Virus record (IMG/VR): IMGVR_UViG_3300021077_000115
Coordinates: 238,064 to 302,063 of that record
DNA length: 64,000 nt
Source: a virus
Reading direction: 5' to 3' (one strand)
Under the pieces are notes generated by a model. That model had not been told where the DNA came from, did not search any database, and worked only from the letters and a program-made list of their open reading frames with translations. Shown in pieces: positions 4,653 to 48,576 of this stretch (positions are counted from its first letter, which is position 1; every line of letters begins with the position of its first letter). The translations under genes were made by a program, and so were the position numbers.

Positions 4653-4701
4653 GTGTACTAAATAGTACGGCGAAAAGTATGCGCTCTCGACGATTCTTAT
4701 A

Positions 4702-5351: not shown

Positions 5352-5392
5352 TAGTGATCTTGCGTAAGCAAGTGTCTATTAGATATATAACA

Positions 5393-20623: not shown

Positions 20624-20800
20624 TTATCTCCTAATTTCCTTGAGTGTTTTACCAAGGAGTACTAATTCAACATCATCCATCCAATTGTCTCGTACTCTTT
20701 GTTTAAAGCTCTCATCAATAACCTTAAATACCAAATACAAATCACCTGTAATTGGATCAACTTCCATTCTAATGGCTCGTGCAACAGTATCAAAGACCAT
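20624..20800 (-). CDS. small hypothetical protein (58 aa)
   Basis: Its ATG overlaps the dnaB TGA stop (ATGA). Translation MVFDTVARAIRMEVDPITGDLYLVFKVIDESFKQRVRDNWMDDVELVLLGKTLKEIRR. It is not in the ORF track because it is under 60 aa. Confidence 0.35.
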   Translation of the reverse strand: MVFDTVARAIRMEVDPITGDLYLVFKVIDESFKQRVRDNWMDDVELVLLGKTLKEIRR

Positions 20801-22251
20801 CAACTATCCTTTGCCTTATTCTTTGCCTCCTGAATTGATCTAATCAGGTCTGGTATATTGGCAGTTACATCTCCAGGAATTTCTCTCTGATCATATGGTA
20901 CATCTATAAGAGATGCATTGGCAAAATTCTTAATCAAATTACCTTGACCCAATGGACCCTTTCGATTCTTGACTACATGAATCTTCAAATCTGGAAAGCT
21001 CATCTCGTTTTGCCTTGTCTCTATTTGAATACCCAAATTTACGTGATGCATTATCAAAGATGAACGTCCCCATCGATGCATACCAACTGCACGATTCTCA
21101 TCCTTGGATCCTGTTGCGTTCCTCTTGAGATCTGTAAGCTGGGCAGCTGTAATAATTGCATTGTCATAAGCTCTTCCGAACTCATGCAATGATGCAGCTA
21201 TCCCTCCAAGCTTCAACCAATCTTGTTCTTTTGCAAGAGCCGTACTGTGCATCAAACCCATATAATCAACGACTACCACGTCTGGACGATATCGTAACAG
21301 TGCATCATGATATCGCAGCTCAACCTCTTCAATTGTAAGGTTTCGTGGGACATCTACAATGTCAAAATAATAGCCGCTTCCTTGATATGCTTTGATAAAA
21401 TCATAAGCCTTTTGTACTCTCATCTCTTCCTCACGAGATAGAGTGGCTTTGGTCAAGCCTCGCTGTGGAACATTAGCTAAGCTGGCAAGGAACCTAACAA
21501 AGCAGTCCTCATAGGGCATTTCCAGGGAGAAATAGAGGATATTGTAACCCTTCACCATTGAGGTGCTGGCAGACGACTCGATTGTATTTCCCTGAAGCCA
21601 AATCTGCTTGGCCATATTGTTAAGCAACTGCGACTTGCCGGCATTGCTCTCACCACCAATCATAATCAGCTCGCCAGGTGAAATGCCCCCAGAAACGGCA
21701 TCAATCATACTGTAGCCGGTCTTGATTTCTACGGAATCTTCGGGGTTAAGCTTGCGCGCCTCGTAAGAATCAATGAATTCAGGGATATAATCGCCGACAG
21801 GCTTTTGGGTATAGGTTCGTTCAAGCTCTATCGAGGTAATTCGGTTGATAGCCAACGATAGCTTGTTGAAATACTCCTCTGGGTTATCTGGAGAATCAGG
21901 ATCATCAGATGACGCCTGCGCACGGATATCCTCTACCGCCTGTTGTTGAAACCTCTTCTTCAACTGTTCGAGATCATAGGGATATTCGCGAGTGTCGTAT
22001 TCTAGCCCTTCTATCTCACTCCAAGCATCCTCTATATTGGCCACGAGCAGTGGATTGCCACTGTGATGTTCGATAAGGGTTCGTTTGGTAGGGGGCGATC
22101 TGAAGTGTTTGGTATAATCCAGGACTAGTTTGGCGAAACGCTGAACGTCAATATCGAACAGAGTATGATCATAACGAGAAACGAATGTGAGCGCGCTTAC
22201 CTTGTCATGTACAAGGGCTTTAAGAATCTTAAGATCTAGTTCCTCTATCAT
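20800..22251 (-). CDS. dnaB: replicative DNA helicase, DnaB family
   Basis: Walker A in the RecA-like domain is GYSMIDAVSGGISPGELIMIGGESNAGKSQLLNNMA. Walker B is DVVVVDYMGLM. The C-terminal arginine-finger region is typical of DnaB. Confidence 0.85.
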   Translation of the reverse strand: MIEELDLKILKALVHDKVSALTFVSRYDHTLFDIDVQRFAKLVLDYTKHFRSPPTKRTLIEHHSGNPLLVANIEDAWSEIEGLEYDTREYPYDLEQLKKRFQQQAVEDIRAQASSDDPDSPDNPEEYFNKLSLAINRITSIELERTYTQKPVGDYIPEFIDSYEARKLNPEDSVEIKTGYSMIDAVSGGISPGELIMIGGESNAGKSQLLNNMAKQIWLQGNTIESSASTSMVKGYNILYFSLEMPYEDCFVRFLASLANVPQRGLTKATLSREEEMRVQKAYDFIKAYQGSGYYFDIVDVPRNLTIEEVELRYHDALLRYRPDVVVVDYMGLMHSTALAKEQDWLKLGGIAASLHEFGRAYDNAIITAAQLTDLKRNATGSKDENRAVGMHRWGRSSLIMHHVNLGIQIETRQNEMSFPDLKIHVVKNRKGPLGQGNLIKNFANASLIDVPYDQREIPGDVTANIPDLIRSIQEAKNKAKDS

Positions 22252-24017
22252 AATTCTCCCTTTTTAATCATGTCTCGCATATCCTGCCCACCAATAACAG
22301 GAACCAATTTAACCACTTTCATCAAACTTTCAATACTTGCTCGCAAAGGTCCAGAGAAACTTTCCTCAACCTTCACGCTGTTGGTACAGAAGAATAGAGG
22401 TACCTTATTTTGAATTCTGGTCCTCATAATTGGCTCAAGAATGCGGCCAAATAGATCGGCGGCATTCTCACTGCCCATAAAGCGAGCATCGAACTCATCT
22501 ATTACCAAAAAGTCTATAGATAGTAATATCTCTCGCGCCTGAGATTTTACCTCTGGCGAGGAATACAGCATGATATGGATTATGTCCGTCAGATTGACAT
22601 ACAGAGCGCTGTAGCTCTTTTCGACGGCTCGCTTCAGGATGCAGCAGGAAACCATCGTATTGTGCGTTGCGATAAAATTGCGCGTAATCAAAAATAAATG
22701 AGATGGGCTATCAACCGTAAGGCATCTCATTGGCCTTGGATCAATTATAGAAACCTTAGTTATGAACCTGTGAGTTGTTCTGGTTTCCTGTGATTTTTCC
22801 AATCTTATATTTTGAAGTTTTCGAGTAATTCTACAGATTGGTAGTTTTGTAGTAAATGTTACTCGATAACGATCCTGGCATCGCTTACCATTGAGAAAGC
22901 TTTTGTTTTTATTGATTGTTGCCTTTATCCCAAAGCTCAAAATCAATTGTAAAAACCCCCTAGCTAATGGCTCAATAACAGAACAGAACTCACATAGGCC
23001 AGTATCAGTTATATGGCCATCAGTATCCATCAATCCCTGAACTAAAGCAAGTCTCTGTTCAAATGAAGAATGTAAATATTCCCAAGGTATATACTTATTC
23101 TGTATTAGCCCAAATTCTCTCAATTCTTTAGCTAATCTTCCGGTTTTTCTCTTAAACTTTCCAACAGGAATCAATTTACCAATTCTATAAAGAAAAGATT
23201 TTGATTTAGAACTAACTGATGAAGGCTTCAAAAACGCTTCATATCCAATCAGCTCTATATTATGAATAATCTCTATATCTGCAGATTCAATCGATCCCTC
23301 TCTACAAGTCCCATCACCAAGCCAGCAACCCAAAACATAAGGATCTATTAGTAGTGATTTGCTGCTGTAATTTATTGGCCTCGAACACTCAATGGAATGA
23401 TTAGATATTTTTTGCTTACCATTAACCTTTTGAGTTAGGAATATTTCCTTAGTAGTCCTTACTTCTGGAGCTGATTTATCAAGTCTGCTTTTTCTAGTAT
23501 GAGTAAGCCATAAATGATCAGCACAAGCATTTACTTTTAAACCATCATCAAACTCTAGTTCATAAGATTCTGGGCTTATCTGTATTGGGTGTAATTTTAA
23601 TACCTTACAAATATTACCATTTTCATCAAATAAAGAATCTCCTTCGCAAAGATCCTTTAGCTTGATAAATCCGGTTGGTGTTGGCAACTCGGTCTCAAGA
23701 TCTAATTGTTTACCGATTCCATGTTTACCGGCAAAGAATGCCCGCTCACCATTCTTGTAAGTCTCCTTGATGTCTTTTGTAACATCTTGATAGACTTTAC
23801 CCAGAATAGCGGGGCCTGACCAATCCGTCATGTCACGCCACCAGTAATCAACTGGTATATTGGCGTCGTAATAGCGCTGGAATGCAGTTGTAAGAGAAGC
23901 ACCAGCTGTGGTTAGTATGCCATCGTTGGATTGACTATCAAGAAGGTCACTGACGGAATCATCTAGCTTTCTTCTTGGGATGTTTAGGAATGGGTTTTGT
24001 AAATATTGGGTATCCAA
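22248..24017 (-). CDS. AAA+ P-loop ATPase (DnaC/IstB-like putative helicase loader) interrupted by an intein in the Walker A motif
   Basis: The exteins join as ...AFFAGKHGIGK | TMVSCCILK..., which reconstitutes GxxGxGKT. Walker B is FLVIDEFD. The combined extein is about 240 aa. The gene lies immediately upstream of dnaB and is translationally coupled to it. Confidence 0.65.
   Translation of the reverse strand: MDTQYLQNPFLNIPRRKLDDSVSDLLDSQSNDGILTTAGASLTTAFQRYYDANIPVDYWWRDMTDWSGPAILGKVYQDVTKDIKETYKNGERAFFAGKHGIGKQLDLETELPTPTGFIKLKDLCEGDSLFDENGNICKVLKLHPIQISPESYELEFDDGLKVNACADHLWLTHTRKSRLDKSAPEVRTTKEIFLTQKVNGKQKISNHSIECSRPINYSSKSLLIDPYVLGCWLGDGTCREGSIESADIEIIHNIELIGYEAFLKPSSVSSKSKSFLYRIGKLIPVGKFKRKTGRLAKELREFGLIQNKYIPWEYLHSSFEQRLALVQGLMDTDGHITDTGLCEFCSVIEPLARGFLQLILSFGIKATINKNKSFLNGKRCQDRYRVTFTTKLPICRITRKLQNIRLEKSQETRTTHRFITKVSIIDPRPMRCLTVDSPSHLFLITRNFIATHNTMVSCCILKRAVEKSYSALYVNLTDIIHIMLYSSPEVKSQAREILLSIDFLVIDEFDARFMGSENAADLFGRILEPIMRTRIQNKVPLFFCTNSVKVEESFSGPLRASIESLMKVVKLVPVIGGQDMRDMIKKGEL
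22659..23708 (-). mobile_element. intein (~350 aa) with a LAGLIDADG endonuclease domain in the P-loop of the AAA+ ATPase. It lacks an obvious N-terminal Cys or Ser.
   Basis: Hint-like start region LPTPTGFIKLKDLCEGDSLFDENGNICKV. LAGLIDADG-like motifs YVLGCWLGDGTC and LVQGLMDTDGHI. The C-terminus is ...NFIATHN followed by Thr (+1). The residue after GK is Gln, so the upstream boundary is uncertain and a class 3-like mechanism is possible. Confidence 0.6.
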
Positions 24018-26469: not shown

Positions 26470-27005
26470 TCAACCTTCAAAACTTGAACAGCTTCTGTTG
26501 AAAGACCTCTACTTCCAAATAAACAATATAGGCGATCCATATCTTTTTGATCATCAGAAGAAACTGAACCAAAACATCCAAAGAATTCTGGATCTGGTAA
26601 TATCATGCAAACATTATCTTCTATATCATCAATTCCAAATACTCTATTTGATTCTATTTGTTTTTTCAAAGAAGTGCTGCACACGATATTACGATCTTGA
26701 ATTAGATTGAAGTTATACTTATTCATTTTCTTCTCAAGACCTTCATTGATGTAATCATCTATGATAAACTTCAAAAGTTTATTAGCCATCTCAACTATAC
26801 CAAAGATATCAGGATCTATAAGCCTCATCATCAACCTATCTCTGACATCAACTTTTCGCTTACAAATACTACCATCTGCTTGTAGTAAATAATAAGTTGT
26901 TTCATCAGCTTCATAGACAGGTTGATAGTAATTGGATAGCCTCCCTAAACAATCACACACAAATATGCGCTGCAGGCTATCAATCGAGCCATGTTTGAAT
27001 TCCAT
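26466..27005 (-). CDS. hypothetical protein (179 aa)
   Basis: ORF whose start overlaps the stop of the tubulin-like gene. Confidence 0.45.
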   Translation of the reverse strand: MEFKHGSIDSLQRIFVCDCLGRLSNYYQPVYEADETTYYLLQADGSICKRKVDVRDRLMMRLIDPDIFGIVEMANKLLKFIIDDYINEGLEKKMNKYNFNLIQDRNIVCSTSLKKQIESNRVFGIDDIEDNVCMILPDPEFFGCFGSVSSDDQKDMDRLYCLFGSRGLSTEAVQVLKVE

Positions 27006-28399
27006 TACTTCTTTCTCCGGTCATGAACGGCAGCGTTGTGTAGCTTGGTAAAGGAAGATGCCTTCTGCTGAATCCTGCGCTTGATTTCCTCAACCTGATT
27101 GGTGCTCTCTTCTCCAACATCAACCTTAATGGTCATGTTGCGCTCATCGTCCTTGCGCTGAGCAGCTCCCATTTTCAACTGGGCCTCGGTCTTCAATTGA
27201 TTAACTCTTTCCTCTGGTAATCCAAGACCGGAGAACATTGAATAGACCTTTACGCAGTCATCCTCAGACTCTTCTTTGTAAATACCATGGAAGGGCACAA
27301 CGCCTTCACACGTATCAAGAATCATCGATTGTGCAAAGTGTAGGCTGGAACTTGGAATTTTGTTCCACACCCTATCAGGGGCCACAAGCATGAATCCAGC
27401 ATATCTAGCCTGACGAATATTGAATCCTGAAGCCAGCAAATTACCCTTGAGAGACTCTAGAATTGCTGAGGCAATTGCCATCTCATCTTCATAATCCGGG
27501 ACAGTGGTAACGCCATATACCGTGAAGCCTTTGCCGTCCATAAATAGCTTACCAAACTCAGAGGAATCAAGAACCTTGACTCCTTCATCTGGGCGGCGGC
27601 TCATTGTATTGAAAACATCCAAAGGCTCTACAATAGCCTTATTCGAAACCTGGAAGAAGTTGAATGGACCAACATCACTATACAATGACTCAATCTTTGC
27701 GTTATCAACAGCAATGATGTTGTGTATCTTGCCAGCGGTAAAGAGCTTCGTAAACGTGCTTAGTGTCTGCCATGCATTGTGCTTCAGCTGAGCATCTTCG
27801 CTGGCTTTTGGTAGAACCGTAAGTACAGCAATTGGCTTTTCTAGCTGCGACAGAATATCAACGACAACTGGCACAGAACCAGCACCAGAACCACCACCAA
27901 GTGATGTGCAGAAAATGAATACTTCTACATCGCTCAAATGACGCTGAATAAGTTGATTGATAGCTGCTCGATAGGCATCCGCAGCATCATGGCCAATGGT
28001 CAGATCTTTTGCAGCGCCTCCAAGACCAAAGTCAAGCAATAGCTTTTGCCGCTCTGGAAGCTTGATATTCTCCAAATCCTGAGGGGCTGTGTTCATGCAA
28101 ACCGCTGGGTAACCAAGAGCAAAGAATTGTTCTGCCAAGCGGCTTCCTGCCTGACCAGACCCAACAATTCCAAAGCGCAGGCTTCGTTGCTGCTCCTCTA
28201 CAATACGTGGTGGCATAACCTCCTCCTTTACCTCCTCTTTTGTCTCGTTGAGCTTGGCAAGTTCCTTTGCTTCTTCTGCTCTCTTCTGTGCGGCTCGCGC
28301 CTTCAGAGCGGCCAATTTTTCTTCATCAACTTGTGGTGTTTCGATATCGTTCACTATTTCCTCTCGATTTAATTTTTCAATCTTTGATTGAGTTACCAT
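27005..28399 (-). CDS. tubulin/FtsZ-superfamily GTPase (phage PhuZ/TubZ/FtsZ-like) with a ~75-aa charged N-terminal extension and a basic C-terminal tail
   Basis: The T1 loop is FGIVGSGQAGSRLAEQF. The tubulin signature is FIFCTSLGGGSGAGSVPVV (GGGTGSG variant). An FtsZ-like T7 region is LTVLPKASEDAQLKHNAWQ...HNIIAVDNAKIE. The N-terminal ~75 aa are K/E-rich and look like a coiled coil. Confidence 0.7.
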   Translation of the reverse strand: MVTQSKIEKLNREEIVNDIETPQVDEEKLAALKARAAQKRAEEAKELAKLNETKEEVKEEVMPPRIVEEQQRSLRFGIVGSGQAGSRLAEQFFALGYPAVCMNTAPQDLENIKLPERQKLLLDFGLGGAAKDLTIGHDAADAYRAAINQLIQRHLSDVEVFIFCTSLGGGSGAGSVPVVVDILSQLEKPIAVLTVLPKASEDAQLKHNAWQTLSTFTKLFTAGKIHNIIAVDNAKIESLYSDVGPFNFFQVSNKAIVEPLDVFNTMSRRPDEGVKVLDSSEFGKLFMDGKGFTVYGVTTVPDYEDEMAIASAILESLKGNLLASGFNIRQARYAGFMLVAPDRVWNKIPSSSLHFAQSMILDTCEGVVPFHGIYKEESEDDCVKVYSMFSGLGLPEERVNQLKTEAQLKMGAAQRKDDERNMTIKVDVGEESTNQVEEIKRRIQQKASSFTKLHNAAVHDRRKK

Positions 28400-28413
28400 T
28401 ATTTACCTAATTA

Positions 28414-29373
28414 TTACATATTTAGCACATATTTATTGCTAACGTACCACTGGCAAGTTTGGGCAATCCCGTCTCTGAATTTGAATTGCGGATTCCATCC
28501 AAGAGTCTTTATCTTATCATTAGACATAGCTAATCTACGATCAAAATTACTCTCGACGTGTTTGATTAACTCATGACCTTTACCAATGGTATTACAAATC
28601 ATCTGAACAACTTCCAGATTGCTAAATTCCTGCTTAGAAGTTATATTGTATATCTCTCTATCAACCCCATTATCAATGATGCTAAATAACGCAGAGCATG
28701 TATCAAATACATGTGTCCACTCTTTAGTATGAGCACCCGAATCATTGATGTTTATATTTTCTTCACTTATATATCTATCATTCAATATACAATCAATAAT
28801 TCTTGGTATTAGATTAGATGCAGTCTGCCATGGACCATAGTTATCACTCAGACGAACAATATTGTAGTGCAAACCTGATAGCCCATAAAAACTAGAAGCC
28901 TTCACCAACAACTCACCAGCCGCTTTTGTAGCAGCAAAGGTTCCTCGCGGATTTGGAGTATCTAATTCATTATATGGGCTATCGTTCTCAGACTTTAGTT
29001 CGCCATATATATTATTGTCGCTGACATAAACCAATCTAGCATCTATTTTCATGCATTCATTGATAATATTTTGCGTTCCAACAAGATTACTACTTACCAT
29101 GGAGGCTTCATCTTTTGATTCTGCGGCTCCATGGATAACAATATCTGGGCGTTCCTTCTCAAATATTACATGTAGGGTATGAGCATCTCTAACATCTGCA
29201 ATATAAAACGAATGATCGGTATTTACGTAGATGTTATGAATAATATGAGAGTCTCGCACCCTATCCATACTAGAAATGGTGTAGGGCAGTTTCGAATAGA
29301 AAACTTGCCGAATGAAGTTCCCGAAAATAAACCCCCCCGACCCCGTGATCAACAATCGCCTTCTTTTAGCCAT
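28414..29373 (-). CDS. RmlB-like (dTDP-glucose 4,6-dehydratase family) extended SDR protein with substituted catalytic residues. Possibly a pseudo-enzyme.
   Basis: It aligns by eye to RmlB along its whole length (LLITGSGGFIFGN / IVIHGAAESKDEAS / PRGTFAATKAAGELLVKA...NYGP / DRRLAMSNDKIKTLGWNPQFKFRDGIAQTCQWYVSN). The YxxxK catalytic Tyr is replaced by Phe (FAATK). The TDE triad is replaced by SDN (VSDNNIYG). The third Gly of GxxGxxG is replaced by Phe. Confidence 0.65.
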   Translation of the reverse strand: MAKRRRLLITGSGGFIFGNFIRQVFYSKLPYTISSMDRVRDSHIIHNIYVNTDHSFYIADVRDAHTLHVIFEKERPDIVIHGAAESKDEASMVSSNLVGTQNIINECMKIDARLVYVSDNNIYGELKSENDSPYNELDTPNPRGTFAATKAAGELLVKASSFYGLSGLHYNIVRLSDNYGPWQTASNLIPRIIDCILNDRYISEENININDSGAHTKEWTHVFDTCSALFSIIDNGVDREIYNITSKQEFSNLEVVQMICNTIGKGHELIKHVESNFDRRLAMSNDKIKTLGWNPQFKFRDGIAQTCQWYVSNKYVLNM

Positions 29374-29460
29374 TAAATAATCCCTTTTTATACATCTCTC
29401 TTAATGTATCTATACTTCTTCCAAAATATACTGGACATATATCTTTGACGCCTTGATATG

Positions 29461-29523
29461 TCACAATGCTACAACCAAAATACCACCACTGCCAGTTACC
29501 AGAACTTTCTTTCTCTTAGCCAT
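29461..29523 (-). pseudogene. 20-codon stub resembling the 5' end of an SDR epimerase/dehydratase gene, which is a truncated paralogue of the start of the downstream gene
   Basis: ATGGCTAAGAGAAAGAAAGTTCTGGTAACTGGCAGTGGTGGTATT...TGA encodes MAKRKKVLVTGSGGILVVAL*. Compare MAKRRRLLITGSGGFIFGN at the start of 28414..29373. Its ATG overlaps the TAA of the upstream gene (TAATG). Confidence 0.4.
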
Positions 29524-31070
29524 TAGGTCCTTAGTATCTCATCTTTAATTGACTTCAAATGGAACAGTATTTTCTTTAGTTTGCTTATACGTGGCAACTT
29601 TGCCTCAAAGGCTTTCAAATCAGCCAACAGAGATGGTGGTTCCACCAGCTTCGCCATCTTTTCATTTGCCATGAACATAACTTCTACGTCAGTAACATTA
29701 CGAAGTGGAGATGAGAATGGTTGTGTGCTTGGTGTGAAAGCTGAAACACCTCGCTTACCTTTATCATTAGGGTTCAGCCTATTTTGACCAATACCAAAGC
29801 GATTCTCATACGCCTCAATGGCCTTTTTATATTCGGCAACAACCTCGGAAGCTTTCTTGACGAAGCGCGGTTTTATTCCATCCTGTTCTACGCGCCTAAA
29901 ATTGCCAGCATGCTTCTGTTTCCTATATTCAGAAGTAAACTTACTCTGAGATTTCGCATTAAGTTCTTCCTTAATGGTTGGCTGTTTAGTAATTGGCAAA
30001 TCAATATTAGTTATCACGGCCATATTTCTAGCTGATTCAGGATCTATTCCAGCACGAACTAATGATTTTACATACTCATCATTTCCACGTACTGCCACTG
30101 ATACCAGCTTACCACGATCAGGAAAGGTTATTTTTTCAACTACCTTACCATCTGCTGATTTCACCTCTTTAGTATCATTGAATGTCGAGTTGATTTTATT
30201 TGCCAACTCCTTCAAGATGCGAGCCTCTTCTGTTTCAGTGTTTTTTATCGCTCTCTCCAAAACCTCACTTATAAATTTGACATCAATAACCTTAGAGAAT
30301 GCCAAATTATTTTCCACCAAAAGAGCAGATAGCAAGAAGCCAAAATTTCCTTTATGCCCAGCCTTATACTCATCAACTTGTCTCGGATGTGCCGCCATCA
30401 CTTTCATGCATAGAGGAATCAATTTAATCTCTTCCAAGATACGCTCATCTTCGGCATCTCGAATGCTTTCAGCATTTTTGCGAGTTATTTCAGACTTAGA
30501 TAATTGAACGAATTTATATCTGAATTTTGTACACACCCCATCCTTATCTGCAGATGTTGACAAAACTTCATAACGACATCCTGTCAGACCAACCAATACA
30601 TCGCCATTTTGAATTAAACTAGAGGTTGTCCAACCTCCAAACTCAGAATCAAATCTAACTTTTGTGATGCCAAGATTTTTCTCAGACCTAACCACGTTAA
30701 CCGTTTCACCTGCCTTTTCCAAAAGTGAATCCAAATGTTCACGCTCACGCCTGAGGCGAAGCTTATTAGCTTCGGCCTCTGACTTCTCAAAATCAGCACG
30801 CAATTTATCCCTATAAGAAGATGATAATGGCAGCTCTAGTTCTGATATTGGTAGCTGGAATGGATAGAAACCATCCATAAAGGAAAGGCGTGGGTGTTTT
30901 TCAGTAACAATCTTTGGCAAAGAATTAAGATCGGGATAGCTCGCCTTGAGAACTTCCCAGCTAATCTGGACGGTAAGTTTTCCATTACCTTCTATGATAT
31001 TAATGTCTGAAATATTTACGTTGCTAGGTATTGTATTACCAATGACCTGTTTAATAGTTGAAAGATCCAT
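29523..31070 (-). CDS. hypothetical Lys-rich protein (515 aa)
   Basis: Long ORF in operon orientation. I recognised no motifs. Confidence 0.5.
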   Translation of the reverse strand: MDLSTIKQVIGNTIPSNVNISDINIIEGNGKLTVQISWEVLKASYPDLNSLPKIVTEKHPRLSFMDGFYPFQLPISELELPLSSSYRDKLRADFEKSEAEANKLRLRREREHLDSLLEKAGETVNVVRSEKNLGITKVRFDSEFGGWTTSSLIQNGDVLVGLTGCRYEVLSTSADKDGVCTKFRYKFVQLSKSEITRKNAESIRDAEDERILEEIKLIPLCMKVMAAHPRQVDEYKAGHKGNFGFLLSALLVENNLAFSKVIDVKFISEVLERAIKNTETEEARILKELANKINSTFNDTKEVKSADGKVVEKITFPDRGKLVSVAVRGNDEYVKSLVRAGIDPESARNMAVITNIDLPITKQPTIKEELNAKSQSKFTSEYRKQKHAGNFRRVEQDGIKPRFVKKASEVVAEYKKAIEAYENRFGIGQNRLNPNDKGKRGVSAFTPSTQPFSSPLRNVTDVEVMFMANEKMAKLVEPPSLLADLKAFEAKLPRISKLKKILFHLKSIKDEILRT

Positions 31071-31117
31071 ACTTTTGTATATATCTATACTTTCGCCACC
31101 ATTTCAGCTTCATGGCA

Positions 31118-32110
31118 TCATTTTGAGCGTTCGATATGAGCTAATCTGGCCCCATAGAATCTGGCGGCCCTCTGTGACACCTTATACCAATTGATGGTTT
31201 CTATCAGCCCATCAATTAATGACGTCCTGGCTTCAAATCCTAAAATCTCTTTAGCCCTAGACACATCAAGGCATCTACGAGGTTGCCCATCTGGATTTTC
31301 ATAGTCGTAAATAATAGTTCCTTTATATCCAACAATATCACAAACAGCAGTTACGACCTCATGAATGCTGGTCTCCACCCCAGTGCCAAGATTGATTATT
31401 AGATTAGTATTTAGCTCTCGTTGAATTGCAAGCAACAAATAATGACTAACATCCTTTGCAAAAATAAAGTCTCTAGTAGCCTTTCCGGTTCCCCAGATAT
31501 TAACACTATCTTGATTGAGATAATGGGCATCGCATACTTTTTTAACTATAGCCGGTATTACATGAGAGTTCTCTAGATCAAAATGATCTTTTGGCCCAAA
31601 TATATTTGATGGAAGAAAGAACACAGAGTTTAATCCATATTGATCCCTATATTTCTCTCCAAGAACAAGTAATGCCTTTTTGGCAAAAGAATATCCACTA
31701 TTAGAGCGGTCCTCTCTCCCATTCCAAAAATCATCTTCTTTAAATGGAGTTGCGCAATTTAATGGATAACCACAAGCAGATCCGCAATTGTATACATTCT
31801 TAATTCTATCCAAATTAGCTTCAATTCCAGAATATAAATTTATACCCATCAACAAGTTTGTATGAGTTAAATTTGCTGGTCTGCGTTTATTCAATCCAAT
31901 CCCACCAACAAAGGCAGCTAAATGTAAGATAGTATCGAAATCATTGCTCTTGAAATAGTCAAGAACGCCACCAACATTTGTAAGGTCCAATTCCTTTGAT
32001 GATGGTGTTAAAATATCCAAACCATTATTAACAGCTTCTTCAACGACATGCTGCCCAAGAAAGCCAGAGGCTCCAGTAATTAATATTTTCACATCACCTC
32101 CATATTCCAT
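31118..32110 (-). CDS. fcl: GDP-L-fucose synthase (GDP-4-keto-6-deoxy-D-mannose 3,5-epimerase/4-reductase)
   Basis: VKILITGASGFLGQHV Rossmann motif. CGSACGYP matches Fcl GSSCIYP. YSFAKKALLVLGEKYRDQYGLNSVFFLPSNIFGPKDHFDLENSHVIPAIV matches Fcl [20 protein letters not shown]...PTNLYGPHDNF...SHVIPAL. Confidence 0.75.
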   Translation of the reverse strand: MEYGGDVKILITGASGFLGQHVVEEAVNNGLDILTPSSKELDLTNVGGVLDYFKSNDFDTILHLAAFVGGIGLNKRRPANLTHTNLLMGINLYSGIEANLDRIKNVYNCGSACGYPLNCATPFKEDDFWNGREDRSNSGYSFAKKALLVLGEKYRDQYGLNSVFFLPSNIFGPKDHFDLENSHVIPAIVKKVCDAHYLNQDSVNIWGTGKATRDFIFAKDVSHYLLLAIQRELNTNLIINLGTGVETSIHEVVTAVCDIVGYKGTIIYDYENPDGQPRRCLDVSRAKEILGFEARTSLIDGLIETINWYKVSQRAARFYGARLAHIERSK

Positions 32111-33042
32111 GCATCTAATATTTCCAACTCTCTTTCACTTACAATTCCATTATTTACCAAAGATATATATATATGATTCATGTTTTGAACCTTATTTTCT
32201 CCCAAATGGCACCTGTCCAATATCTCTACTGTTCTTTCCACATCGGAATACATCTGGATTTCATCCACAAAATCCTTCATATAATCTTGCCTAAATCTAT
32301 TTTGATAGACTATAGATTTAGAAAATCCCAAATACAAATTGTCCTGTCTTAGTAATCTTTGTGCGATGTAAGATCTGAGTATATCAGCGAATCTCCAAGA
32401 TACAGTTGACGGGAAATACATATATTGGAAACATTCTTTATTCCAGAATGTACTTTGAGAATTGAATGGGGCATAAGAATTACTATCCAATACAAATGGA
32501 TATTTTACATCAAAATTCAATTGATGATTGAAAACCAATCGGTAGATAGCATCGACATCAGGGTCCTGGTCTATTAGTGTTTGCCATATACCAACCTTTT
32601 TACTATCTCTATTCGACATAGTGTATGTAATGTTTTTATTGATATAACTTAATGGAAATCCCCTATTCCAAATTTTCTCATTTGAAAGATATCCATATAT
32701 ATTGGCAAATTTCTCAGAGCTTGATAATACATTATCGCACACAAATCCAGTATCAAAATTCCATGAGTCGTATGGAATGTTATCATCATCTGTTTCGTAA
32801 ATTATGTCGCTACCACAGCGCATAGCCATTAGATATCCTAAGTTCTTTCGACTATAGCGATTTGGCCCAATCATATTTGATAGTTTTGAATTTTCTTCAT
32901 AACGCAAAAATTCAATTTGTGCATCATTATATTCTGGAGTTTTCTTATCACCAACAAGAATAAGCTTCCAATTAGGGATATTCTTGAACTTATAAATTGA
33001 TTCTGTTTCAGAGTTTATTGTGGTTATGATTGTGCTATTCAT
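32089..33042 (-). CDS. hypothetical protein, possibly a DXD-type glycosyltransferase
   Basis: It has a DDD motif (IIYETDDDNIPYDSW) and lies inside the glycosyltransferase cluster. I cannot assign a family. Confidence 0.35.
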   Translation of the reverse strand: MNSTIITTINSETESIYKFKNIPNWKLILVGDKKTPEYNDAQIEFLRYEENSKLSNMIGPNRYSRKNLGYLMAMRCGSDIIYETDDDNIPYDSWNFDTGFVCDNVLSSSEKFANIYGYLSNEKIWNRGFPLSYINKNITYTMSNRDSKKVGIWQTLIDQDPDVDAIYRLVFNHQLNFDVKYPFVLDSNSYAPFNSQSTFWNKECFQYMYFPSTVSWRFADILRSYIAQRLLRQDNLYLGFSKSIVYQNRFRQDYMKDFVDEIQMYSDVERTVEILDRCHLGENKVQNMNHIYISLVNNGIVSERELEILDAWNMEVM

Positions 33043-33370
33043 TGTATATTTTTACGCTATCCTCAAATAGCGATTTACCTTCTATGATAGATTTTTCAAT
33101 CAATTTATTAATGGCCTCTACTAACCTTGGTCGCTTTTGTTTGAAACAGATATCTATTTTTCTTTTCAATGCCCCTAATTCCTGATCTGATATGTCTTTA
33201 TGAATCAAATCTTCAAGCATCCAGGTTCGAATGTGAACTATAATTAGCTTGTCAAGAACTTCCCCTAAACTATCAGTCTCAATATATTCTTTAGCTTCAG
33301 GAATCTCTTTCTTACCACAGATTTCTGCAACATACTCTTTTATCCGCAAATCTATAATGTCCTTTGGCAT
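33035..33370 (-). CDS. hypothetical protein (111 aa)
   Basis: ORF in operon orientation. Confidence 0.4.
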   Translation of the reverse strand: MPKDIIDLRIKEYVAEICGKKEIPEAKEYIETDSLGEVLDKLIIVHIRTWMLEDLIHKDISDQELGALKRKIDICFKQKRPRLVEAINKLIEKSIIEGKSLFEDSVKIYNE

Positions 33371-33375
33371 ATAAA

Positions 33376-34185
33376 TTACAATCCTTTTATTTCTTGTTTG
33401 ATCATTTCAGGAGATACGAGTTTTATTTTTAGATTACTAAATGTAACACTTGATGAAAAAAACAGAGGATGCCGTTCACAAAGACATGCACAGTTTTTTA
33501 TGAGCAATAGCTTTGAATCACAACAAATCTGGCAAACTGCACCACCTCCACTTGCTGGTGAAATAATTACATTGCATAAAGGATGATGCATAACAGATGC
33601 CCAATCTTGCAAGTTATCAAGATATGTTACGCCTTTGTCTTTCCAAACCCTTTCAGATCCAATTCCAAAAACAAATACCTGGCTATATTTTGATTTAAGC
33701 ATATCTATAACTGATCGATAATAATAATCATTTAGATTTCTATCAGAACACCAATTTCTAATTCTAATCAAAACTCCTGCAAATTTTTTGGAAATATGAT
33801 ATTTTTCTTCAACATTTGAATAGTCAACTTTCAAAATATCATCTTTACATTCTGGATATTTGTAATGATCAATTTTACCGCAACTATATTCGTCATGTAA
33901 TTCCCCAAGATCTTCAAATTTACAAACACGATCTTCTGTATATTTAAAGACATCTTCTGTATCCGGTAGGTCTTCAATCCCAATAACATTCTTGGCTATT
34001 TTTGTATATAGGAATTTTCTATCGGCTATGGTAACGACAACATCATCTGGAGTCCATATCCCTTTATGCAAATCTCTAATATACGCCAATCTAGAGACCA
34101 TAAGTTCCCAGCCGAGTTCAGTATAGTTTTCTGTTGTTCCAATATCAGATTTTTGGCCAGTACCAGTTATTATATATGTCATCAA
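33376..34185 (-). CDS. hypothetical protein (269 aa), Cys-rich C-terminal region
   Basis: ORF in operon orientation within the glycan island. Confidence 0.45.
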   Translation of the reverse strand: MMTYIITGTGQKSDIGTTENYTELGWELMVSRLAYIRDLHKGIWTPDDVVVTIADRKFLYTKIAKNVIGIEDLPDTEDVFKYTEDRVCKFEDLGELHDEYSCGKIDHYKYPECKDDILKVDYSNVEEKYHISKKFAGVLIRIRNWCSDRNLNDYYYRSVIDMLKSKYSQVFVFGIGSERVWKDKGVTYLDNLQDWASVMHHPLCNVIISPASGGGAVCQICCDSKLLLIKNCACLCERHPLFFSSSVTFSNLKIKLVSPEMIKQEIKGL

Positions 34186-35265
34186 TTACCTCGAATCTGC
34201 TAAGCTCTCAACCATAGTTACTAATTTATCAGTCAGGAAATTCCAATCATTATCCTTGCGATCAAGATGAGTTTGAATTAGTTCTTGTCTTATTTTGTAA
34301 TACTCATCTTTGAAATCATTACTCAAAAGTCTCTTTAGATTGGCTAGATTTTGATCTTGGCGCGCAGGGTCATATGTCCACTTCAGGATATCGTGACCAT
34401 ATGGATCCCACCACTCTTCGTGGCCAAATAGCGGAAGTCCTTGGCAAAGGAACTCATTAGCAAAGTATGGAAACCCTTCTGAATATGAGGTGTGTGCCAA
34501 ATATGCAAAATCGGATAATATCTCTCTAACCGCTCTGTCTGTTTTGTAAATGTGACTTATCACATTATACGATGAACTGTCAAAGTTGTTTGACTTTAGC
34601 ATATCTATGAGCTGTTCTGCATTTTTGCCACCAGCATCTTTCCCACCTCTATTATAGATTAGCATTTTCAATTTAGATAATCTAATATTTCTATTATAGA
34701 ATGTAGAGAAATAGGCTTTGTCTATTGGGTGCGGAACTAGCTCTATATTTTGTATGCTTGATACTAGTAATTGTTTCGTTTCAAGCACATCAATATTATC
34801 TGAATTCCATTTGCGTATTGCTACATCATTAGTTTTGAAGATTGCGCCATAAAGCCCTTCAAGTAAAGATGGGTGAGTGGGATATGTATTAGATCCTATT
34901 CCATACTTATTGAATTTACCATACTTCCACTTATCAACTTCAAAATTATCGTTGTCAATAATAATTGAGCGCTCAGGAAACTTTTTCAATTGGTAAGAGG
35001 GGCGTGCAGAAATGAATACATCTTTATTTGTCATTTGTATTTCATTTTTAGGTAATACAAACTCTTCAGTTGGCCCATTTTTCCAATTGGTATATATTGT
35101 ATTCTTTGGAAATTTTGCTAATATAGAATTGTATACAAAATATGTTATCTGATCCCATGAACATCTTCTGCCATGCAAATAACCATTTGGATTTTCTGGA
35201 GGTAATGATATGTAGATATTCATAACCTTATCCACTCTGGAGGTGCTAGGTCTGTTGTTGACCAT
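34186..35265 (-). CDS. hypothetical protein (359 aa)
   Basis: ORF in operon orientation within the glycan island. Confidence 0.45.
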   Translation of the reverse strand: MVNNRPSTSRVDKVMNIYISLPPENPNGYLHGRRCSWDQITYFVYNSILAKFPKNTIYTNWKNGPTEEFVLPKNEIQMTNKDVFISARPSYQLKKFPERSIIIDNDNFEVDKWKYGKFNKYGIGSNTYPTHPSLLEGLYGAIFKTNDVAIRKWNSDNIDVLETKQLLVSSIQNIELVPHPIDKAYFSTFYNRNIRLSKLKMLIYNRGGKDAGGKNAEQLIDMLKSNNFDSSSYNVISHIYKTDRAVREILSDFAYLAHTSYSEGFPYFANEFLCQGLPLFGHEEWWDPYGHDILKWTYDPARQDQNLANLKRLLSNDFKDEYYKIRQELIQTHLDRKDNDWNFLTDKLVTMVESLADSR

Positions 35266-36005
35266 GCGCTATAAGCGGGACCAAACCAATTGCTAGGCGC
35301 AACAACTACCTTATCTTCTGCCTTACTTAACCACGCCGCCCACCAAGAAAAAGAACTATTTGCTATAATGAAATCGGAACAACTAACCATTTTACTGAAA
35401 TCAGAAATTGTAGAAGATGTCTCGTTTATAGTAAACTCATTGCCCTTGAAGTTTTGTTTGCACCATTCAGTATCATCAGAAAATACCATGAATTTCTTCG
35501 TTGGAATCTTTTCTGCTGCACTCATATAATATTGCATCGTTTGAGTTGGATGATGCTTTGGATAGTTTAAATAATCTCCACGGCGAACATGAATACAACA
35601 ATAATCCTTCATGTCTTCAACTGGAATTGGCGATAATATTTCTTTGATGTAATCCTTGCAATTATCAAAGTATCTCCAGCTTTGAAAATAACCAGATAAT
35701 GAACAGTTATTCTGAAATGGTATCTCTACATAATGATACCCAGATTCTTTGTATTGTGTAGATATCTTAATAGAAGACTTATCAATAAAATACTCGTCTG
35801 GTATGTTTGTCCAACTTTGAAATTCCCATTTTGGAAAGCAAAACTGAACATTGTATCTCTTCGCATATCCAATAGTTGCAGCTATCTGAAATAAGGAATT
35901 ACCAAATCGACCATGATGCCCAAGTTCAATAAATGTAGCTGTCATATCATCTATCCATGATTCTCTTGTATGGAAGCATCGACCTGATTCTTCTTTCTGT
36001 TTCAA
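35220..36005 (-). CDS. alpha-1,2-fucosyltransferase-like glycosyltransferase (GT11 family)
   Basis: CIHVRRGDYLNY carries the HxRRxD motif I that is diagnostic of GT11 fucosyltransferases. The conserved C-terminal hydrophobic/aromatic region is also present. Confidence 0.65.
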   Translation of the reverse strand: MKQKEESGRCFHTRESWIDDMTATFIELGHHGRFGNSLFQIAATIGYAKRYNVQFCFPKWEFQSWTNIPDEYFIDKSSIKISTQYKESGYHYVEIPFQNNCSLSGYFQSWRYFDNCKDYIKEILSPIPVEDMKDYCCIHVRRGDYLNYPKHHPTQTMQYYMSAAEKIPTKKFMVFSDDTEWCKQNFKGNEFTINETSSTISDFSKMVSCSDFIIANSSFSWWAAWLSKAEDKVVVAPSNWFGPAYSAWSTTDLAPPEWIRL

Positions 36006-36705
36006 TTTGCAAACTTCGGTCTACTTTCGCTTCATTAATTGGCGATGTATAATTGTATACATATAATACATCTGGTATAAATGATTGCTTAGGACCGGCA
36101 AGCTCAAGCATTGGGAACATAGTAGCCAAATCTCCAGCCGCCCTAAACCAATCACCTTTGTACATCAAATCTTCTTTGCGTATCATCTTGTAAAGCCAAG
36201 CATAATGAGTTCTTAAGTGAGATGAACACCATTGATAGCGCCTAAACATATTGGAATCAATTATGTTCTTAGGTATCTCACACGAAAATCCATGACTATT
36301 ATCTGAATATGATATCCATTGACCATAGGTAATCCATATATCTTTTTCATTGTACTCTCTATTTACACGAGTCAATACATCATTGTTTGCAAGCCAATCA
36401 TCACCATCTAACAGAACAACAATCTCGTCATCATCACAACTATGTATCATGTTGTATGTATTACCAATTGGTAATAGACGTTTAGTATTTCTAGTCAGAA
36501 TAATTTTATGATTATTGTCATGCTTGGAGATAATGCGTTCTACCTCATCGGCGGTCCCATCAGTTGAACAATCATCTGCATAAATAATCCTAAAGTCTGG
36601 ATAATTCTGGTTCAAGGCAGAAAGAAGATTCTTCTCGCACCAATCTATATTTTGATAGCTTGGAATTACAATAACAAATCGATTAACTTTTGACATACAA
36701 AGCAT
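35947..36705 (-). CDS. glycosyltransferase family 2
   Basis: VIVIPSYQNIDWCEKNLLSALNQNYPDFRIIYADDCSTDGT is the GT2 N-terminal motif. The DxD is VLLDGDDW. Confidence 0.7.
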   Translation of the reverse strand: MLCMSKVNRFVIVIPSYQNIDWCEKNLLSALNQNYPDFRIIYADDCSTDGTADEVERIISKHDNNHKIILTRNTKRLLPIGNTYNMIHSCDDDEIVVLLDGDDWLANNDVLTRVNREYNEKDIWITYGQWISYSDNSHGFSCEIPKNIIDSNMFRRYQWCSSHLRTHYAWLYKMIRKEDLMYKGDWFRAAGDLATMFPMLELAGPKQSFIPDVLYVYNYTSPINEAKVDRSLQIETERRIRSMLPYKRIMDR

Positions 36706-37366
36706 CTCCCCAAGTCATACCATCCCACCAGGTACCAACTCTCTTGAATCCATAGCTACCCAGAAAGCCATCTATCTCACCAACTAAAGCACAGTTTTTG
36801 TATAACTCTGCTCTATTAACCTCAGCATATACATAATCTATGCCCTTCAAAGTATCAATTCCACCTTTAAAAACCTCCAACTCATATCCCTGTACATCAA
36901 TATTTATGAAGTTGTACAAAGCACAATCAAATGGCAACAAATCAAGCTTTGTAACACCAACCTTAATCTTGCCGTTGAATATTATATCTGGATACTGACT
37001 TAGGTGCTGATGTGGCTGTAATAAAGACGATGATTGACCTTGATTGGCAACTTCAGTAAACATATCTGCTTCGCCTTCAAAATTGCCAAGAGCAACATTG
37101 AATAATGTGCACTCGCTCCCAACATTTTTTGAAAGAATGTTGAAGTTGTCTAGTTGTGGCTCTACAAATATTATATTAGTCAGTCCGATGTCTTTGTAAT
37201 AAACATACTCCTGACCACGGTGGCCTCCTATGTGAATTACACCGCGAATATTCAAATCAAAATCAGAAATAAGATTCGGAAGAGGTTTTAGCATATAAAC
37301 CCATATATAACACGATATATTTGCAATTATGGATATTAATATTGTATACGACGCTATCAAAACCAC
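36683..37366 (-). CDS. FkbM-family methyltransferase. It probably starts at the Met near 37294.
   Basis: VIHIGGHRGQEYVYY...ALGNFEGEADMF...IDVQGYELEVFKG matches Methyltransf_21 (FkbM). The annotated N-terminal 24 aa are hydrophobic and overlap the divergent GT10 gene. Confidence 0.6.
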   Translation of the reverse strand: MVLIASYTILISIIANISCYIWVYMLKPLPNLISDFDLNIRGVIHIGGHRGQEYVYYKDIGLTNIIFVEPQLDNFNILSKNVGSECTLFNVALGNFEGEADMFTEVANQGQSSSLLQPHQHLSQYPDIIFNGKIKVGVTKLDLLPFDCALYNFINIDVQGYELEVFKGGIDTLKGIDYVYAEVNRAELYKNCALVGEIDGFLGSYGFKRVGTWWDGMTWGDALYVKS

Positions 37367-38252
37367 CGAGATTTTATATGAAGGACCAGAGGGGAAGGTA
37401 TATTATTCGCCTACTAGAAAAGAAAGAATGCCAAATATTTTTCAAAGCCTATGCAACAACCCAAACCCAAATGATAGCGCTCTTATGGCTGAACCAATAG
37501 TAGTCTCACCAGGAAACTACGATGTTAATTATCTGTCAAGGTTCAGGAAAGTATTTGGATGTTTTGAAAAAGCTTTCGAAAACACCAAAATCAAAGAAAA
37601 ATATGTGTGCGTAAATTATGGATATGATTTGAAAATTCACTCTCCATTATTGCAAATAGATGCAGAATCTATAAGAGAAAATTGGAAATCATGGAACCAA
37701 CGCAACGGAATGATTGTTATTGCCGGTGGTAGTAAGAATTCCACACATCAGGCATCAATTTATTGCCTAAGATTAATGATTGCAGATTTGTTCTATCAAA
37801 ACAATTTTGAAGTAGCATGGTATGGTCAGCAACACTGCAATAGACCATATTACAAAGGAGCGGTTCACGACAAAATTAGTGAAATAGGCAAATACAAGTT
37901 TGTAATATGTTCTGAAAATACATATGACCCAATTTATTCACATAATTATCTAACAGAAAAATTACCTCATGCTATTTACGGAGGAGCTCTTCCTCTTTAT
38001 ATTGGCTGCTATAATATAGATGACCTTGCACCTAAACATACATTTTTTGATCTGAGAAATTTTGTCTTACAAAATTACGGCCAAGTAACACTATTAAAAG
38101 AACCATTGCTAGAAGCTATAAAATCATTTAGTCAAGAAAATTTCGAACGATATCAAGAGGCAGCATATCAATTCATAAAAGATCCTCTTGGTATTAATTA
38201 TCATATGGATCCTAATAGAGTTTACAAAAAAATGTTAGATACATTACAATAG
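37329..38252 (+). CDS. alpha-1,3-fucosyltransferase-like glycosyltransferase (GT10 family)
   Basis: KYKFVICSENTYDPIYSHNYLTEKLPHAIYGGALPLYIG matches the GT10 signature YKFYLAFENS..pDYiTEKlw.nal.aGaVPVvlG. Confidence 0.7.
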   Translation: MDINIVYDAIKTTEILYEGPEGKVYYSPTRKERMPNIFQSLCNNPNPNDSALMAEPIVVSPGNYDVNYLSRFRKVFGCFEKAFENTKIKEKYVCVNYGYDLKIHSPLLQIDAESIRENWKSWNQRNGMIVIAGGSKNSTHQASIYCLRLMIADLFYQNNFEVAWYGQQHCNRPYYKGAVHDKISEIGKYKFVICSENTYDPIYSHNYLTEKLPHAIYGGALPLYIGCYNIDDLAPKHTFFDLRNFVLQNYGQVTLLKEPLLEAIKSFSQENFERYQEAAYQFIKDPLGINYHMDPNRVYKKMLDTLQ

Positions 38253-38969
38253 ATTGAATATCTTATTCAATTCATTGTTATACTTCGAATATGGCCTAAC
38301 CGAATGAATATCATAATAGTAACCTTTGCTAACCAATTTTCTATCGTATCTCCAAGTTGAGCGATCTATCCTGTGCCCATTCTGACCGCCATCTCGCTGA
38401 ATGAAATGAAACAGTGACTTATACTCATAATTATTTATTAGCATTGTTGAAGATACTTCATCAACAGACCAATGCTCATTACCATCATGGTTAGTATTAA
38501 TTCCATTTGAGGATATAATTGCTTTATCTATATACATATCAAAATCAACATTCCCAAGAACCTTGCTGTAAGTATTCCCAGATGCAATATGATAGCAAGC
38601 CGGGATATTGTTTGCACATGGGTTTATGTGAACGTATTTATCGTTCGAGATCTGCTCTAGTTGAGTATTGAAGTAAAAATTTGACAGCGGATACATATCA
38701 ATATCAGAAATAATACCAATCTTATTTCCAAGTTGTGTCGCATACCAATACCTAACAATTTGACATTGTAAAGATATTGAAAATCTTGGAATTGGCTTTA
38801 TTCTAATTACATTACCATATTCTTCTGATATATTAATACTCTCGTTATCTTCTATATAAAGCAATATAGGGTTTATATTCAATCTTCTCCATGCTTTAGA
38901 CACAGAAGGCCAAAAATCCAAATAGAATGAATTTGAGTTAGAACTATTTATAGCAACATCTATTTTCAT
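38244..38969 (-). CDS. hypothetical protein (241 aa)
   Basis: ORF coupled (ATGA-type overlap) to the UDP-xylose synthase gene. Confidence 0.45.
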   Translation of the reverse strand: MKIDVAINSSNSNSFYLDFWPSVSKAWRRLNINPILLYIEDNESINISEEYGNVIRIKPIPRFSISLQCQIVRYWYATQLGNKIGIISDIDMYPLSNFYFNTQLEQISNDKYVHINPCANNIPACYHIASGNTYSKVLGNVDFDMYIDKAIISSNGINTNHDGNEHWSVDEVSSTMLINNYEYKSLFHFIQRDGGQNGHRIDRSTWRYDRKLVSKGYYYDIHSVRPYSKYNNELNKIFNLL

Positions 38970-39901: not shown

Positions 39902-39903
39902 AA

Positions 39904-40731: not shown

Positions 40732-40734
40732 CTG

Positions 40735-43477: not shown

Positions 43478-43510
43478 AGCATTCCTATCAGTAAGAATAT
43501 ATAATTATGC

Positions 43511-44191: not shown

Positions 44192-44203
44192 TTATTTCTC
44201 CAT

Positions 44204-48574: not shown

Positions 48575-48576
48575 AT

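Follow-up and report, generated by a model that had tools for sequence, protein, structure and literature searches.

Several non-catalytic short-chain dehydrogenases/reductases (SDRs) with a Rossmann fold are known, among them NmrA, HSCARG/NMRAL1, NDUFA9 of complex I and CSP41 of chloroplasts, and the presumption for these atypical members is that they bind a dinucleotide and serve in regulation or as structural parts. The free-standing homing endonuclease genes (HEGs) of phages, such as the seg and mob genes of T4 and those of ICP1, are a classic subject, as is their cycle of presence, decay and absence. Both subjects meet in the locus described here, which consists of a gene for a 319-aa SDR and a 20-codon open reading frame (ORF) in front of it, in a 64,000-nucleotide stretch of viral DNA (positions 238,064 to 302,063 of IMG/VR record IMGVR_UViG_3300021077_000115; this whole stretch is called the window below). 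We consider a joint explanation likely, in which the protein is a selectively maintained and very probably non-catalytic SDR of the RmlB type and the short ORF, or stub, is the scar of a homing endonuclease.

The extended SDRs RmlB, RffG and DesIV (TIGR01181) share with the window protein homology over the full length and the two-domain fold, conserved positions of the NAD-binding motifs, the Lys of Yx3K, the YGPxQ motif and the C-terminal Arg and Asn nucleotide contacts, and the full STDE...Yx3K is present in the intact members of the window protein's phage family. The window protein differs from them in Tyr to Phe, in Thr-Asp-Glu to Asp-Asn-Asn, in a six-residue loop deletion, in a DNYGP motif and in its TIGR01181 score, which suggests a derivative of the RmlB family and not a functional member of it. 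The UDP-GlcNAc 4,6-dehydratases PglF and WbpM likewise have a hydrophobic residue for the Tyr and keep the Lys, and their TDK...Mx3K is resembled by the STDR...Lx3K of a subclade that is sister to the branch of the window protein. The latter, with D-N-N and Fx3K, is without the Thr, Asp and Lys of PglF and shows no homology to these enzymes at the subfamily level. With the atypical SDRs it shares a fold kept under purifying selection after loss of the Tyr, but the relation is at the superfamily level only, with no match to the NmrA Pfam family, and the window SDR would be an independent derivative, arisen in phages, of a sugar-nucleotide dehydratase.

The element behind the stub can be compared to the free-standing HEGs of phages in that it is a nuclease gene at a conserved gene, is present, decayed or absent among relatives and is found in genomes rich in inteins and HEGs. 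It differs from them by the combination of NUMOD3 with a TnsA-like PD-(D/E)XK domain, and also by its position, since the cassette sits within the target ORF at codon 15 and restores that ORF with its own copy of the 5' segment. It is not in an intergenic spacer, an intron or an intein, and the target gene is not split. In fungal mitochondria, HEG ORFs flank duplicated C-terminal parts of atp6 and cob (PMC6279837). There, too, a short dead copy of a gene end lies beside intact or degenerate HEG ORFs, but the 3' end is duplicated, in an organelle, whereas in the window it is the 5' end, in a phage and with a different nuclease family. A limited literature search found no description of a NUMOD3/TnsA-like cassette or of replacement of a 5' segment in phages, and nothing specific on SDR pseudoenzymes of huge phages.

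The features of the locus are the following (relatives are cited by our own labels, L001, P0001 and the like):

29523..31070, minus strand: 515-aa ORF of unassigned function (ORF list; homologues lie 5' of the SDR gene in L001, L045 and L125-L127)
29461..29523, minus strand: 20-codon ORF, MAKRKKVLVTGSGGILVVAL and a stop (ORF list; its ATG overlaps the stop of the 515-aa ORF as TAATG)
29482..29523, minus strand: stub, read as the original first 14 codons of the SDR gene, MAKRKKVLVTGSGG (stubs of relatives and the native 5' end in L126)
29480..29481, minus strand: approximate deletion junction, within about 3 nt (global DNA alignment with L002)
29366..29479, minus strand: 3' remnant of the HEG, 37 codons plus stop, FGCSIVTYQGVKDICPVYFGRSIDTLREMYKKGLFNG (BLASTP, tblastn and DNA alignment)
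28414..29373, minus strand: 319-aa RmlB-derived extended SDR with F17, D119-N120-N121, F146, K150 and D177 (ORF list, Pfam, PDB alignments and AlphaFold2)
29011..29019, minus strand: codons of D119-N120-N121 of the SDR (sequence)
28936..28938, minus strand: codon of F146 of the SDR (sequence)
27005..28399, minus strand: tubulin/TubZ-like gene, 464 aa (Pfam Tubulin and TubZ-like_C; 14 nt downstream of the SDR gene)

Fold, active site and maintenance of the SDR

A first-pass annotation of the same DNA had aligned the 319-aa protein along its full length with dTDP-glucose 4,6-dehydratase, and this assignment holds. The protein aligns end to end with solved enzymes of this class (2hun, E=9e-39 with phmmer against the PDB and 9e-76 with the family profile), the ten best PDB sequences are all of the RmlB type, and the next matches are more than 20 orders of magnitude weaker. 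Pfam gives Epimerase/GDP_Man_Dehyd, together with a Polysacc_synt_2 match restricted to the Rossmann part. The AlphaFold2 model, built from 68 family sequences, has a pLDDT of 90 and a pTM of 0.90, and its TM score to the RmlB structures 1KEU, 1G1A and 1KEP is 0.88-0.89. The start of the gene at 29373 is supported by all homologues as the correct one. A protein identical to the window SDR is present on a 215.8-kb JGI contig (P0001), where the public gene call is 284 aa long, begins at Met36 and leaves out the beta1-alphaA segment of the Rossmann fold.

The active site is altered at each of its central positions. For the dTDP-glucose 4,6-dehydratase class the signature is [ST]DE...Yx3K (PMC8987622). 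In the PDB and profile alignments the column of the catalytic Tyr holds F146 and the Lys of Yx3K is retained as K150, in line with the earlier reading of this motif. The Thr-Asp-Glu triad is also replaced, as had been claimed, but the residues first proposed, Ser-Asp-Asn, were read one position out of register, and the columns hold D119-N120-N121 (VS-DNN-IYG against VS-TDE-VYG). The protein has in addition a six-residue deletion in the AAES-x-VD-x-S loop (the equivalent of ESHVDRS in RmlB) and the change N177D, by which NNYGP reads DNYGP, and the positions K187, Y210 and H277/D278, several of which are sugar-nucleotide or substrate contacts, are relaxed. Neither the profile alignment nor the structure model places an alternative Tyr/Lys/Thr triad elsewhere in the SDR. 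On TIGR01181, the NCBIfam equivalog model for dTDP-glucose 4,6-dehydratase, it scores 212 bits with a cut-off of 365.1, and intact phage relatives score 328-338 bits, themselves just below that cut-off. The replacement of the Tyr and of all Thr-Asp-Glu positions, together with this score, strengthens the view that the protein is a pseudo-enzyme.

These substitutions were placed within a family obtained by a search of 5.8 billion proteins, which returned 595 relatives of the SDR. The top 120 of them are 45-86% identical, with lengths of 308-325 aa, and many come from contigs that measure 200-465 kb. A scan of metagenome contigs gave mainly RmlB genes of the ordinary cellular kind, and just two of its loci, L045 and L046, were of use. 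Megablast of window 27000..32200 against 50,697 phage records gave no match, and tblastn found only relatives at <=32% identity; no cultured relative is available. The N-terminus M-A-K-R-K-K-V-L-V-T-G-S-G-G-F-I-F-G-N-F is found family-wide, including a Phe where GxxGxxG has its third Gly (in the window SDR, G11-x-x-G14-x-x-F17-G18). This Phe had been noted correctly in the first-pass annotation, which counted it among the signs of degeneracy. However, GSGGFI[FLM][GS]NF is common to almost all of the phage family, including 69 members with an intact STDE...Yx3K, so that F17 is no sign of decay and is probably compatible with NAD binding.

In the family tree, the active site was lost mainly in one monophyletic subclade, to which the query belongs (at least 18 clusters, 18 of which were used). 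The replacements there are Tyr by Phe or Leu, Glu by Arg, Gln, Asn or Lys, Thr by Ser or Asp, and Asp by Asn or Cys. Asn177 is changed to Asp in about half of the subclade, including the query's branch, and the six-residue loop deletion is a feature of the subclade as well. Outside it, at least four or five further small lineages have each lost the Tyr on their own, and altogether it is absent from 26 of the 121 aligned family sequences. Positions that are invariant in the 69 intact members and variable in the subclade comprise 119-121, 144, 146, 148 and 151, which are the catalytic columns and helix, as well as 84 in the AAES motif, its neighbour 92, and 187, 210 and 277/278 in the C-terminal domain. 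The dinucleotide-binding positions G11, G14, D37, D60, H81-G82-A83, E85, N96 and K150 are invariant in the subclade, as are the nucleotide-contact positions R174, Y179-G180-P181, Q183, N243 and R280. Judged from its sequence, the SDR descends from a phage-encoded dTDP/UDP-glucose 4,6-dehydratase and is itself very probably non-catalytic. It retains the two-domain extended-SDR fold, the dinucleotide motifs (G11, G14, D37, D60, HGAxE, N96 and K150) and some of the C-terminal domain that binds the nucleotide (R174, YGPxQ, N243 and R280), and the conservation of these motifs suggests that it binds NAD.

The gene is not decaying, as had been considered at first, but is maintained under purifying selection. 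The dN/dS ratio, estimated by the Nei-Gojobori method for seven members of the degenerate clade (window, L001, L002, L045, L125, L126 and L127), is about 0.05-0.14 in all pairs with estimable dS. For the closest pair, window and L001, it is about 0.08-0.11 in each third of the gene, and L005 (TDK with Tyr) compared with L128 (intact), two members from where the family is better preserved, gives 0.07. All 18 subclade members used are full-length and have more than 100 invariant positions. The gene lies directly 5' of a tubulin gene, usually at 2-30 nt, in relatives of 48% to 81% identity (L001, L002, L125-L128, L130 and L133), and in the distant L129 three small ORFs lie between the two.

Several observations weigh against the joint explanation. 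K150 and S118 are invariant in the degenerate clade, and PglF and WbpM are dehydratases without the Tyr that are active with TDK...Mx3K (PMC8987622). The sister subclade with STDR...Lx3K (e.g. P0010) may, by analogy, keep residual or novel chemistry, and since it resembles the PglF/WbpM signature we do not claim inactivity for the whole clade. For many pairs dS is about 1 or saturated, hence the dN/dS values are approximate, although their direction is unambiguous. With regard to the stub, the breakpoints of the deletion between stub and gene are likewise approximate and not placeable to the nucleotide.

The first of these points bear on the alternative that survives best, namely that the SDR is still an enzyme with a non-canonical mechanism, be it a Tyr-independent dehydratase like PglF and WbpM or a catalyst of some other NAD-dependent reaction. 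Such an activity would be in agreement with the use of Thr, Asp and Lys by PglF and WbpM, which have Met for Tyr (PMC8987622), with the retention in the loci of the sister subclade of a DegT aminotransferase, which needs a 4-keto sugar, and with strong purifying selection on a protein in which K150, S118 and the NAD motifs do not change. However, the query's own branch reads SDN[NQK]...Fx3K, in which the Thr, the Asp and the basic residue of PglF/WbpM are all replaced, and the substrate-contact positions 187, 210 and 277/278 are relaxed. Within the clade, moreover, 119-121 (T/S/D, D/N/C and R/Q/N/K) and 146 (F/L) vary among close relatives, which is a pattern of relaxation and the opposite of a new conserved catalytic set. 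The glycan island of the window, furthermore, lacks DegT and appears to make GDP-fucose with GMD and GFS-like genes of its own. We therefore regard a surviving enzyme activity of the window SDR as unlikely. An early-stage pseudogene in neutral drift after loss of its pathway would account for the missing catalytic residues, for the differences between close relatives in the catalytic columns and for the repeated loss of the Tyr in the family, but it is highly improbable in view of the low dN/dS over a dS of about 1 or more, the full length of 18 of 18 clade members, the confident structure prediction and the conserved synteny and tight spacing with tubulin.

The stub and the endonuclease remnant

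The non-catalytic, maintained SDR accounts for one half of the joint explanation; the other half concerns the 149 nt between the 515-aa ORF and the SDR start. Read through from its ATG, the stub ORF ends at a TGA at 29461..29463, which is 87 nt short of the SDR ATG. That this ORF is a diverged copy of the gene's N-terminus with its ATG on the upstream stop, as the first-pass annotation had recognised, is confirmed. The likeness is far beyond chance, since the 14 residues MAKRKKVLVTGSGG match without exception the native N-terminus of relatives such as L126. Between the stub and the functional 5' end 26 of 42 nt are identical, and only about 15 codons were ever duplicated. L126 is a relative without the HEG, where the real SDR gene starts at the same overlap with the stop of the 515-aa ORF; TAATG is thus the native junction.

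The remainder of the spacer is HEG sequence. The translation of window 29479..29369 is identical at 25 of 37 positions (68%) to residues 257-293 of the 293-aa HEG product of L002 (BLASTP, E=2e-17), and tblastn of this protein against the whole window gives no other match (E=4e-11). In L002, where the SDR is 68% identical, the stop of the 515-aa homologue is followed by the same 14 codons, then by the HEG and then by a full-length SDR gene. The L002 HEG has NUMOD3 repeats and a TnsA-like PD-(D/E)XK nuclease domain (Pfam), and its stop overlaps the SDR ATG by 8 nt, exactly as the stop of the remnant does in the window. A global DNA alignment of window 29600..29300 (minus strand) with L002 6981..8075 consists of two collinear blocks of ~80% identity around a single gap of about 795 bp. 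The missing stretch corresponds to L002 7100..7894, that is, to the left end of the cassette and HEG codons 1-256, with the NUMOD3 repeats and the nuclease domain, and no intact ORF of the nuclease is left in the window. The C-terminal match and the collinear alignment together indicate that the spacer is the old 5' end of the resident gene joined to the last 37 HEG codons. The stub would accordingly be the scar of a homing-endonuclease cassette, most of which was deleted later. The deletion footprint suspected at first is therefore real, but what was removed is an endonuclease gene and not a dehydratase.

The same arrangement recurs in relatives. The HEG family comprises 27 clusters, and in the three diverged lineages that were inspected (L002-4/9, L130-132 and L133-134; HEGs 46-100% identical to the L002 protein) the HEG lies directly 5' of the SDR gene, with a stub in front of it whose last residues are G-[ST]-[GC]-G(-F). 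All relatives that bear the HEG have a stub that reaches codon 14-15 and no further, with the HEG next in line. The HEG is intact in these three lineages, is a remnant in the window and in L045, which has about 26 nt of the HEG 3' end left and no stub, and is absent from L001, L005 and L125-L129, which have no stub. In P0003, the closest relative with context (82% identical), a 74-aa ORF overlaps the SDR start by 8 nt; this ORF, known from the gene table alone, is probably a longer remnant of the HEG. The window, L002 and L130 have the same stub peptide, and the DNA differences among the three are all synonymous, as expected if each stub is the former 5' end of the recipient itself. The functional 5' ends beside the HEG are recoded and are identical to their stubs at 26 of 42 and 29 of 42 nt. 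Beyond the shared part the stub tails differ among relatives (GGILVVAL, GGLYQYLDICIC and GGFHQLSCIFV, each followed by a stop).

Two further observations were made in the HEG-bearing lineages. The gene call for the SDR behind the HEG is only 254 aa long in L131 (4082..4846, the call in L130 being 3887..4846), with N-terminal coding sequence (VRKIKLMITGSGGF...) present at about nt 3905; the short call may reflect a frameshift or stop in this allele, or an assembly error. In L133 a second, unrelated HEG (GIY-YIG and NUMOD3, 225 aa, 4849..5526) lies between the SDR and tubulin genes, so that two HEGs bracket the SDR gene.

We infer a homing mechanism from these sequences. The putative nuclease would cut at about codon 15 of naive SDR genes, within the GSGGF codons of the Rossmann fold. 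The mobile cassette would begin just past the cut, include the HEG and end with another copy of codons 1-15 that is diverged and recoded. With a genome that has the cassette as template, repair would then rebuild the SDR gene, and the recipient's own 5' end would be stranded as the stub. The window would represent the next step in the life cycle of the HEG, an internal deletion of about 795 bp. Since the gene restarts with a complete N-terminus of its own, and what lies between it and the stub codes for the HEG, a link between the two by way of a group I intron, an intein or a frameshift was rejected. A target-site duplication by a transposon, considered for the TnsA-like domain, was rejected because the copies are just 62-69% identical, with mostly synonymous or conservative differences.

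The HEG is unrelated to the decay of the active site, since two HEG-bearing lineages (L130 and L133) have catalytically intact SDRs; L001, which is free of the HEG, has the same dead active site (SDNK...Fx3K), which argues that the decay is independent of the insertion.

A function of the stub ORF as a leader peptide, or as an element of translational coupling for the SDR, is very unlikely. The start on the upstream stop and the identity of the 14 residues in three lineages would fit such a role, but the peptide identity is accounted for by the stubs having recently been functional 5' ends. In addition, the ORF ends well before the SDR ATG, its tail after GSGG differs between lineages and all HEG-free relatives are without it.

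The origin first proposed for the stub, in which a tandem or ancestral active dehydratase was deleted, its first 20 codons were left behind and the present degenerate copy came as a replacement, is hardly tenable. In its favour, the stub is a genuine diverged N-terminus of the family at the native junction, with the 26 of 42 nt given above, and over its first 150 nt the window gene is 83% identical to the HEG-linked L002 allele and 81% to L001, the nearest relative overall, which hints at an imported 5' end; a sliding-window test for co-conversion of the SDR 5' end with the HEG gave a weak hint. However, the DNA past the stub is HEG and not SDR sequence, the stub gives way to the HEG at the same codons wherever the HEG is found, with a full SDR behind it, the degeneracy predates or is independent of these events as judged from L001, and in L130 and L133 the same HEG and stub stand beside intact SDRs.

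Role, surroundings and significance

The SDR gene and the stub are two separate matters. The likeliest role that we infer for the product of the gene is non-enzymatic: it would bind NAD(H) or a nucleotide, or act as a scaffold, and be expressed together with the phage tubulin/replication module next to it. This role would have outlasted the enzyme activity. The RmlB activity may have turned redundant once the neighbouring glycan island became GDP-fucose based; GMD and GFS-like enzymes are encoded in the island itself, an aminotransferase is not, and the RmlB activity may have become dispensable. A more far-reaching version, to which we give little weight, is that the SDR gene is a core, tubulin-linked gene of this huge-phage lineage with a non-enzymatic function, so that catalysis could be lost time and again while the gene stayed, the family tree showing at least five independent losses of the Tyr, and that its Rossmann codons are the site of an undescribed, "self-healing" HEG cassette. 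In this case the protein might be a regulator that senses NAD(H) or nucleotides, or a structural partner of the phage tubulin/replication module.

The SDR gene had been placed at the head of the glycan island, but the island begins upstream, beyond the 515-aa ORF, which separates the two, and the fixed partner of the SDR gene is the tubulin gene downstream. The island (31118..45325, mostly minus strand) appears from its gene content to be built for GDP-fucose. It includes GMD (38969..39901), a GFS-like SDR (31118..32110), GT11 and GT10 fucosyltransferases, a STELLO-like glycosyltransferase, several GT2 enzymes, an FkbM methyltransferase, a DUF4254 protein and a glycosyltransferase of the GT4/GT1 type (44204..45325). 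By Pfam and gene content of the window, the island holds no DegT or other aminotransferase, unlike L002, L126, L127 and L128, which carry a DegT aminotransferase near the SDR, with or without an acetyltransferase; what the island contains may go along with whether the SDR is catalytically intact. The window was also searched for another RmlB-type gene in intact form, and none was found, the only matches being the GMD-like and GFS-like SDRs at ~25% identity.

Upstream of intact SDRs, L128 (7527..9995) and L131 (343..2925) encode fusions of 822-860 aa. These consist of a GFS-like epimerase domain and a C-terminal region weakly similar to the 515-aa ORF of the window (34% over 77 aa, E=1e-5), so that the two halves correspond in the window to the adjacent genes 31118..32110 and 29523..31070. 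The fusion suggests that the 515-aa protein belongs functionally to the sugar pathway. A Rosetta-stone link of the 515-aa ORF to the 319-aa SDR was rejected, as the fusion partner is the GFS-like SDR.

The window comes from a large phage. Among its products are a baseplate J protein, DnaB and UvsW-like helicases and a ribonucleotide reductase that contains an intein. Immediately before the glycan island, on its upstream side at 45575..58643 (minus strand), are very large putative tail or fibre proteins of 999 aa (dockerin-like repeat), 2265 aa (Laminin_G_3/ConA-like domain) and 1085 aa (Baseplate_J), and at 1349..2941 (plus strand) a 530-aa protein resembles CCA-adding enzymes or poly(A) polymerases (PolyA_pol head and HD domain).

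The genome is generally rich in selfish endonuclease elements. The 1308-aa large subunit of ribonucleotide reductase (15752..19678, minus strand) has a LAGLIDADG intein (Intein_splicing, LAGLIDADG_3, Hom_end). A 589-aa LAGLIDADG_3 ORF (22248..24017, minus strand) lies immediately 5' of the DnaB-like helicase gene (20800..22251, minus strand) and may be a further HEG, or an intein variant, at a conserved replication gene; in L126 the DnaB gene (849 aa) itself has Hom_end/LAGLIDADG domains. The tubulin gene adjoining the SDR gene carries an intein (Intein_splicing and LAGLIDADG/Hom_end, 927-930 aa) in L002 (8945..11737) and L130 (5217..>6900), and the 464-aa tubulin of the window has none.

For the annotation of these phages, the name "dTDP-glucose 4,6-dehydratase" that pipelines attach to the protein (JGI names) is almost certainly wrong for the degenerate clade, and any glycan pathway predicted for a phage on the strength of this name would be misleading. 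The clade offers a clean natural case of an enzyme fold under strong selection after erasure of its active site, in uncultivated phages of 200-465 kb, and its catalytically intact sister lineages allow a direct comparison. Tiny ORFs that resemble gene starts can be scars of homing endonucleases. The HEG family would be one that inserts within a coding sequence and repairs its target through its own copy of the 5' end, and the cassette bears on how HEGs may invade essential or conserved genes without the aid of introns or inteins.

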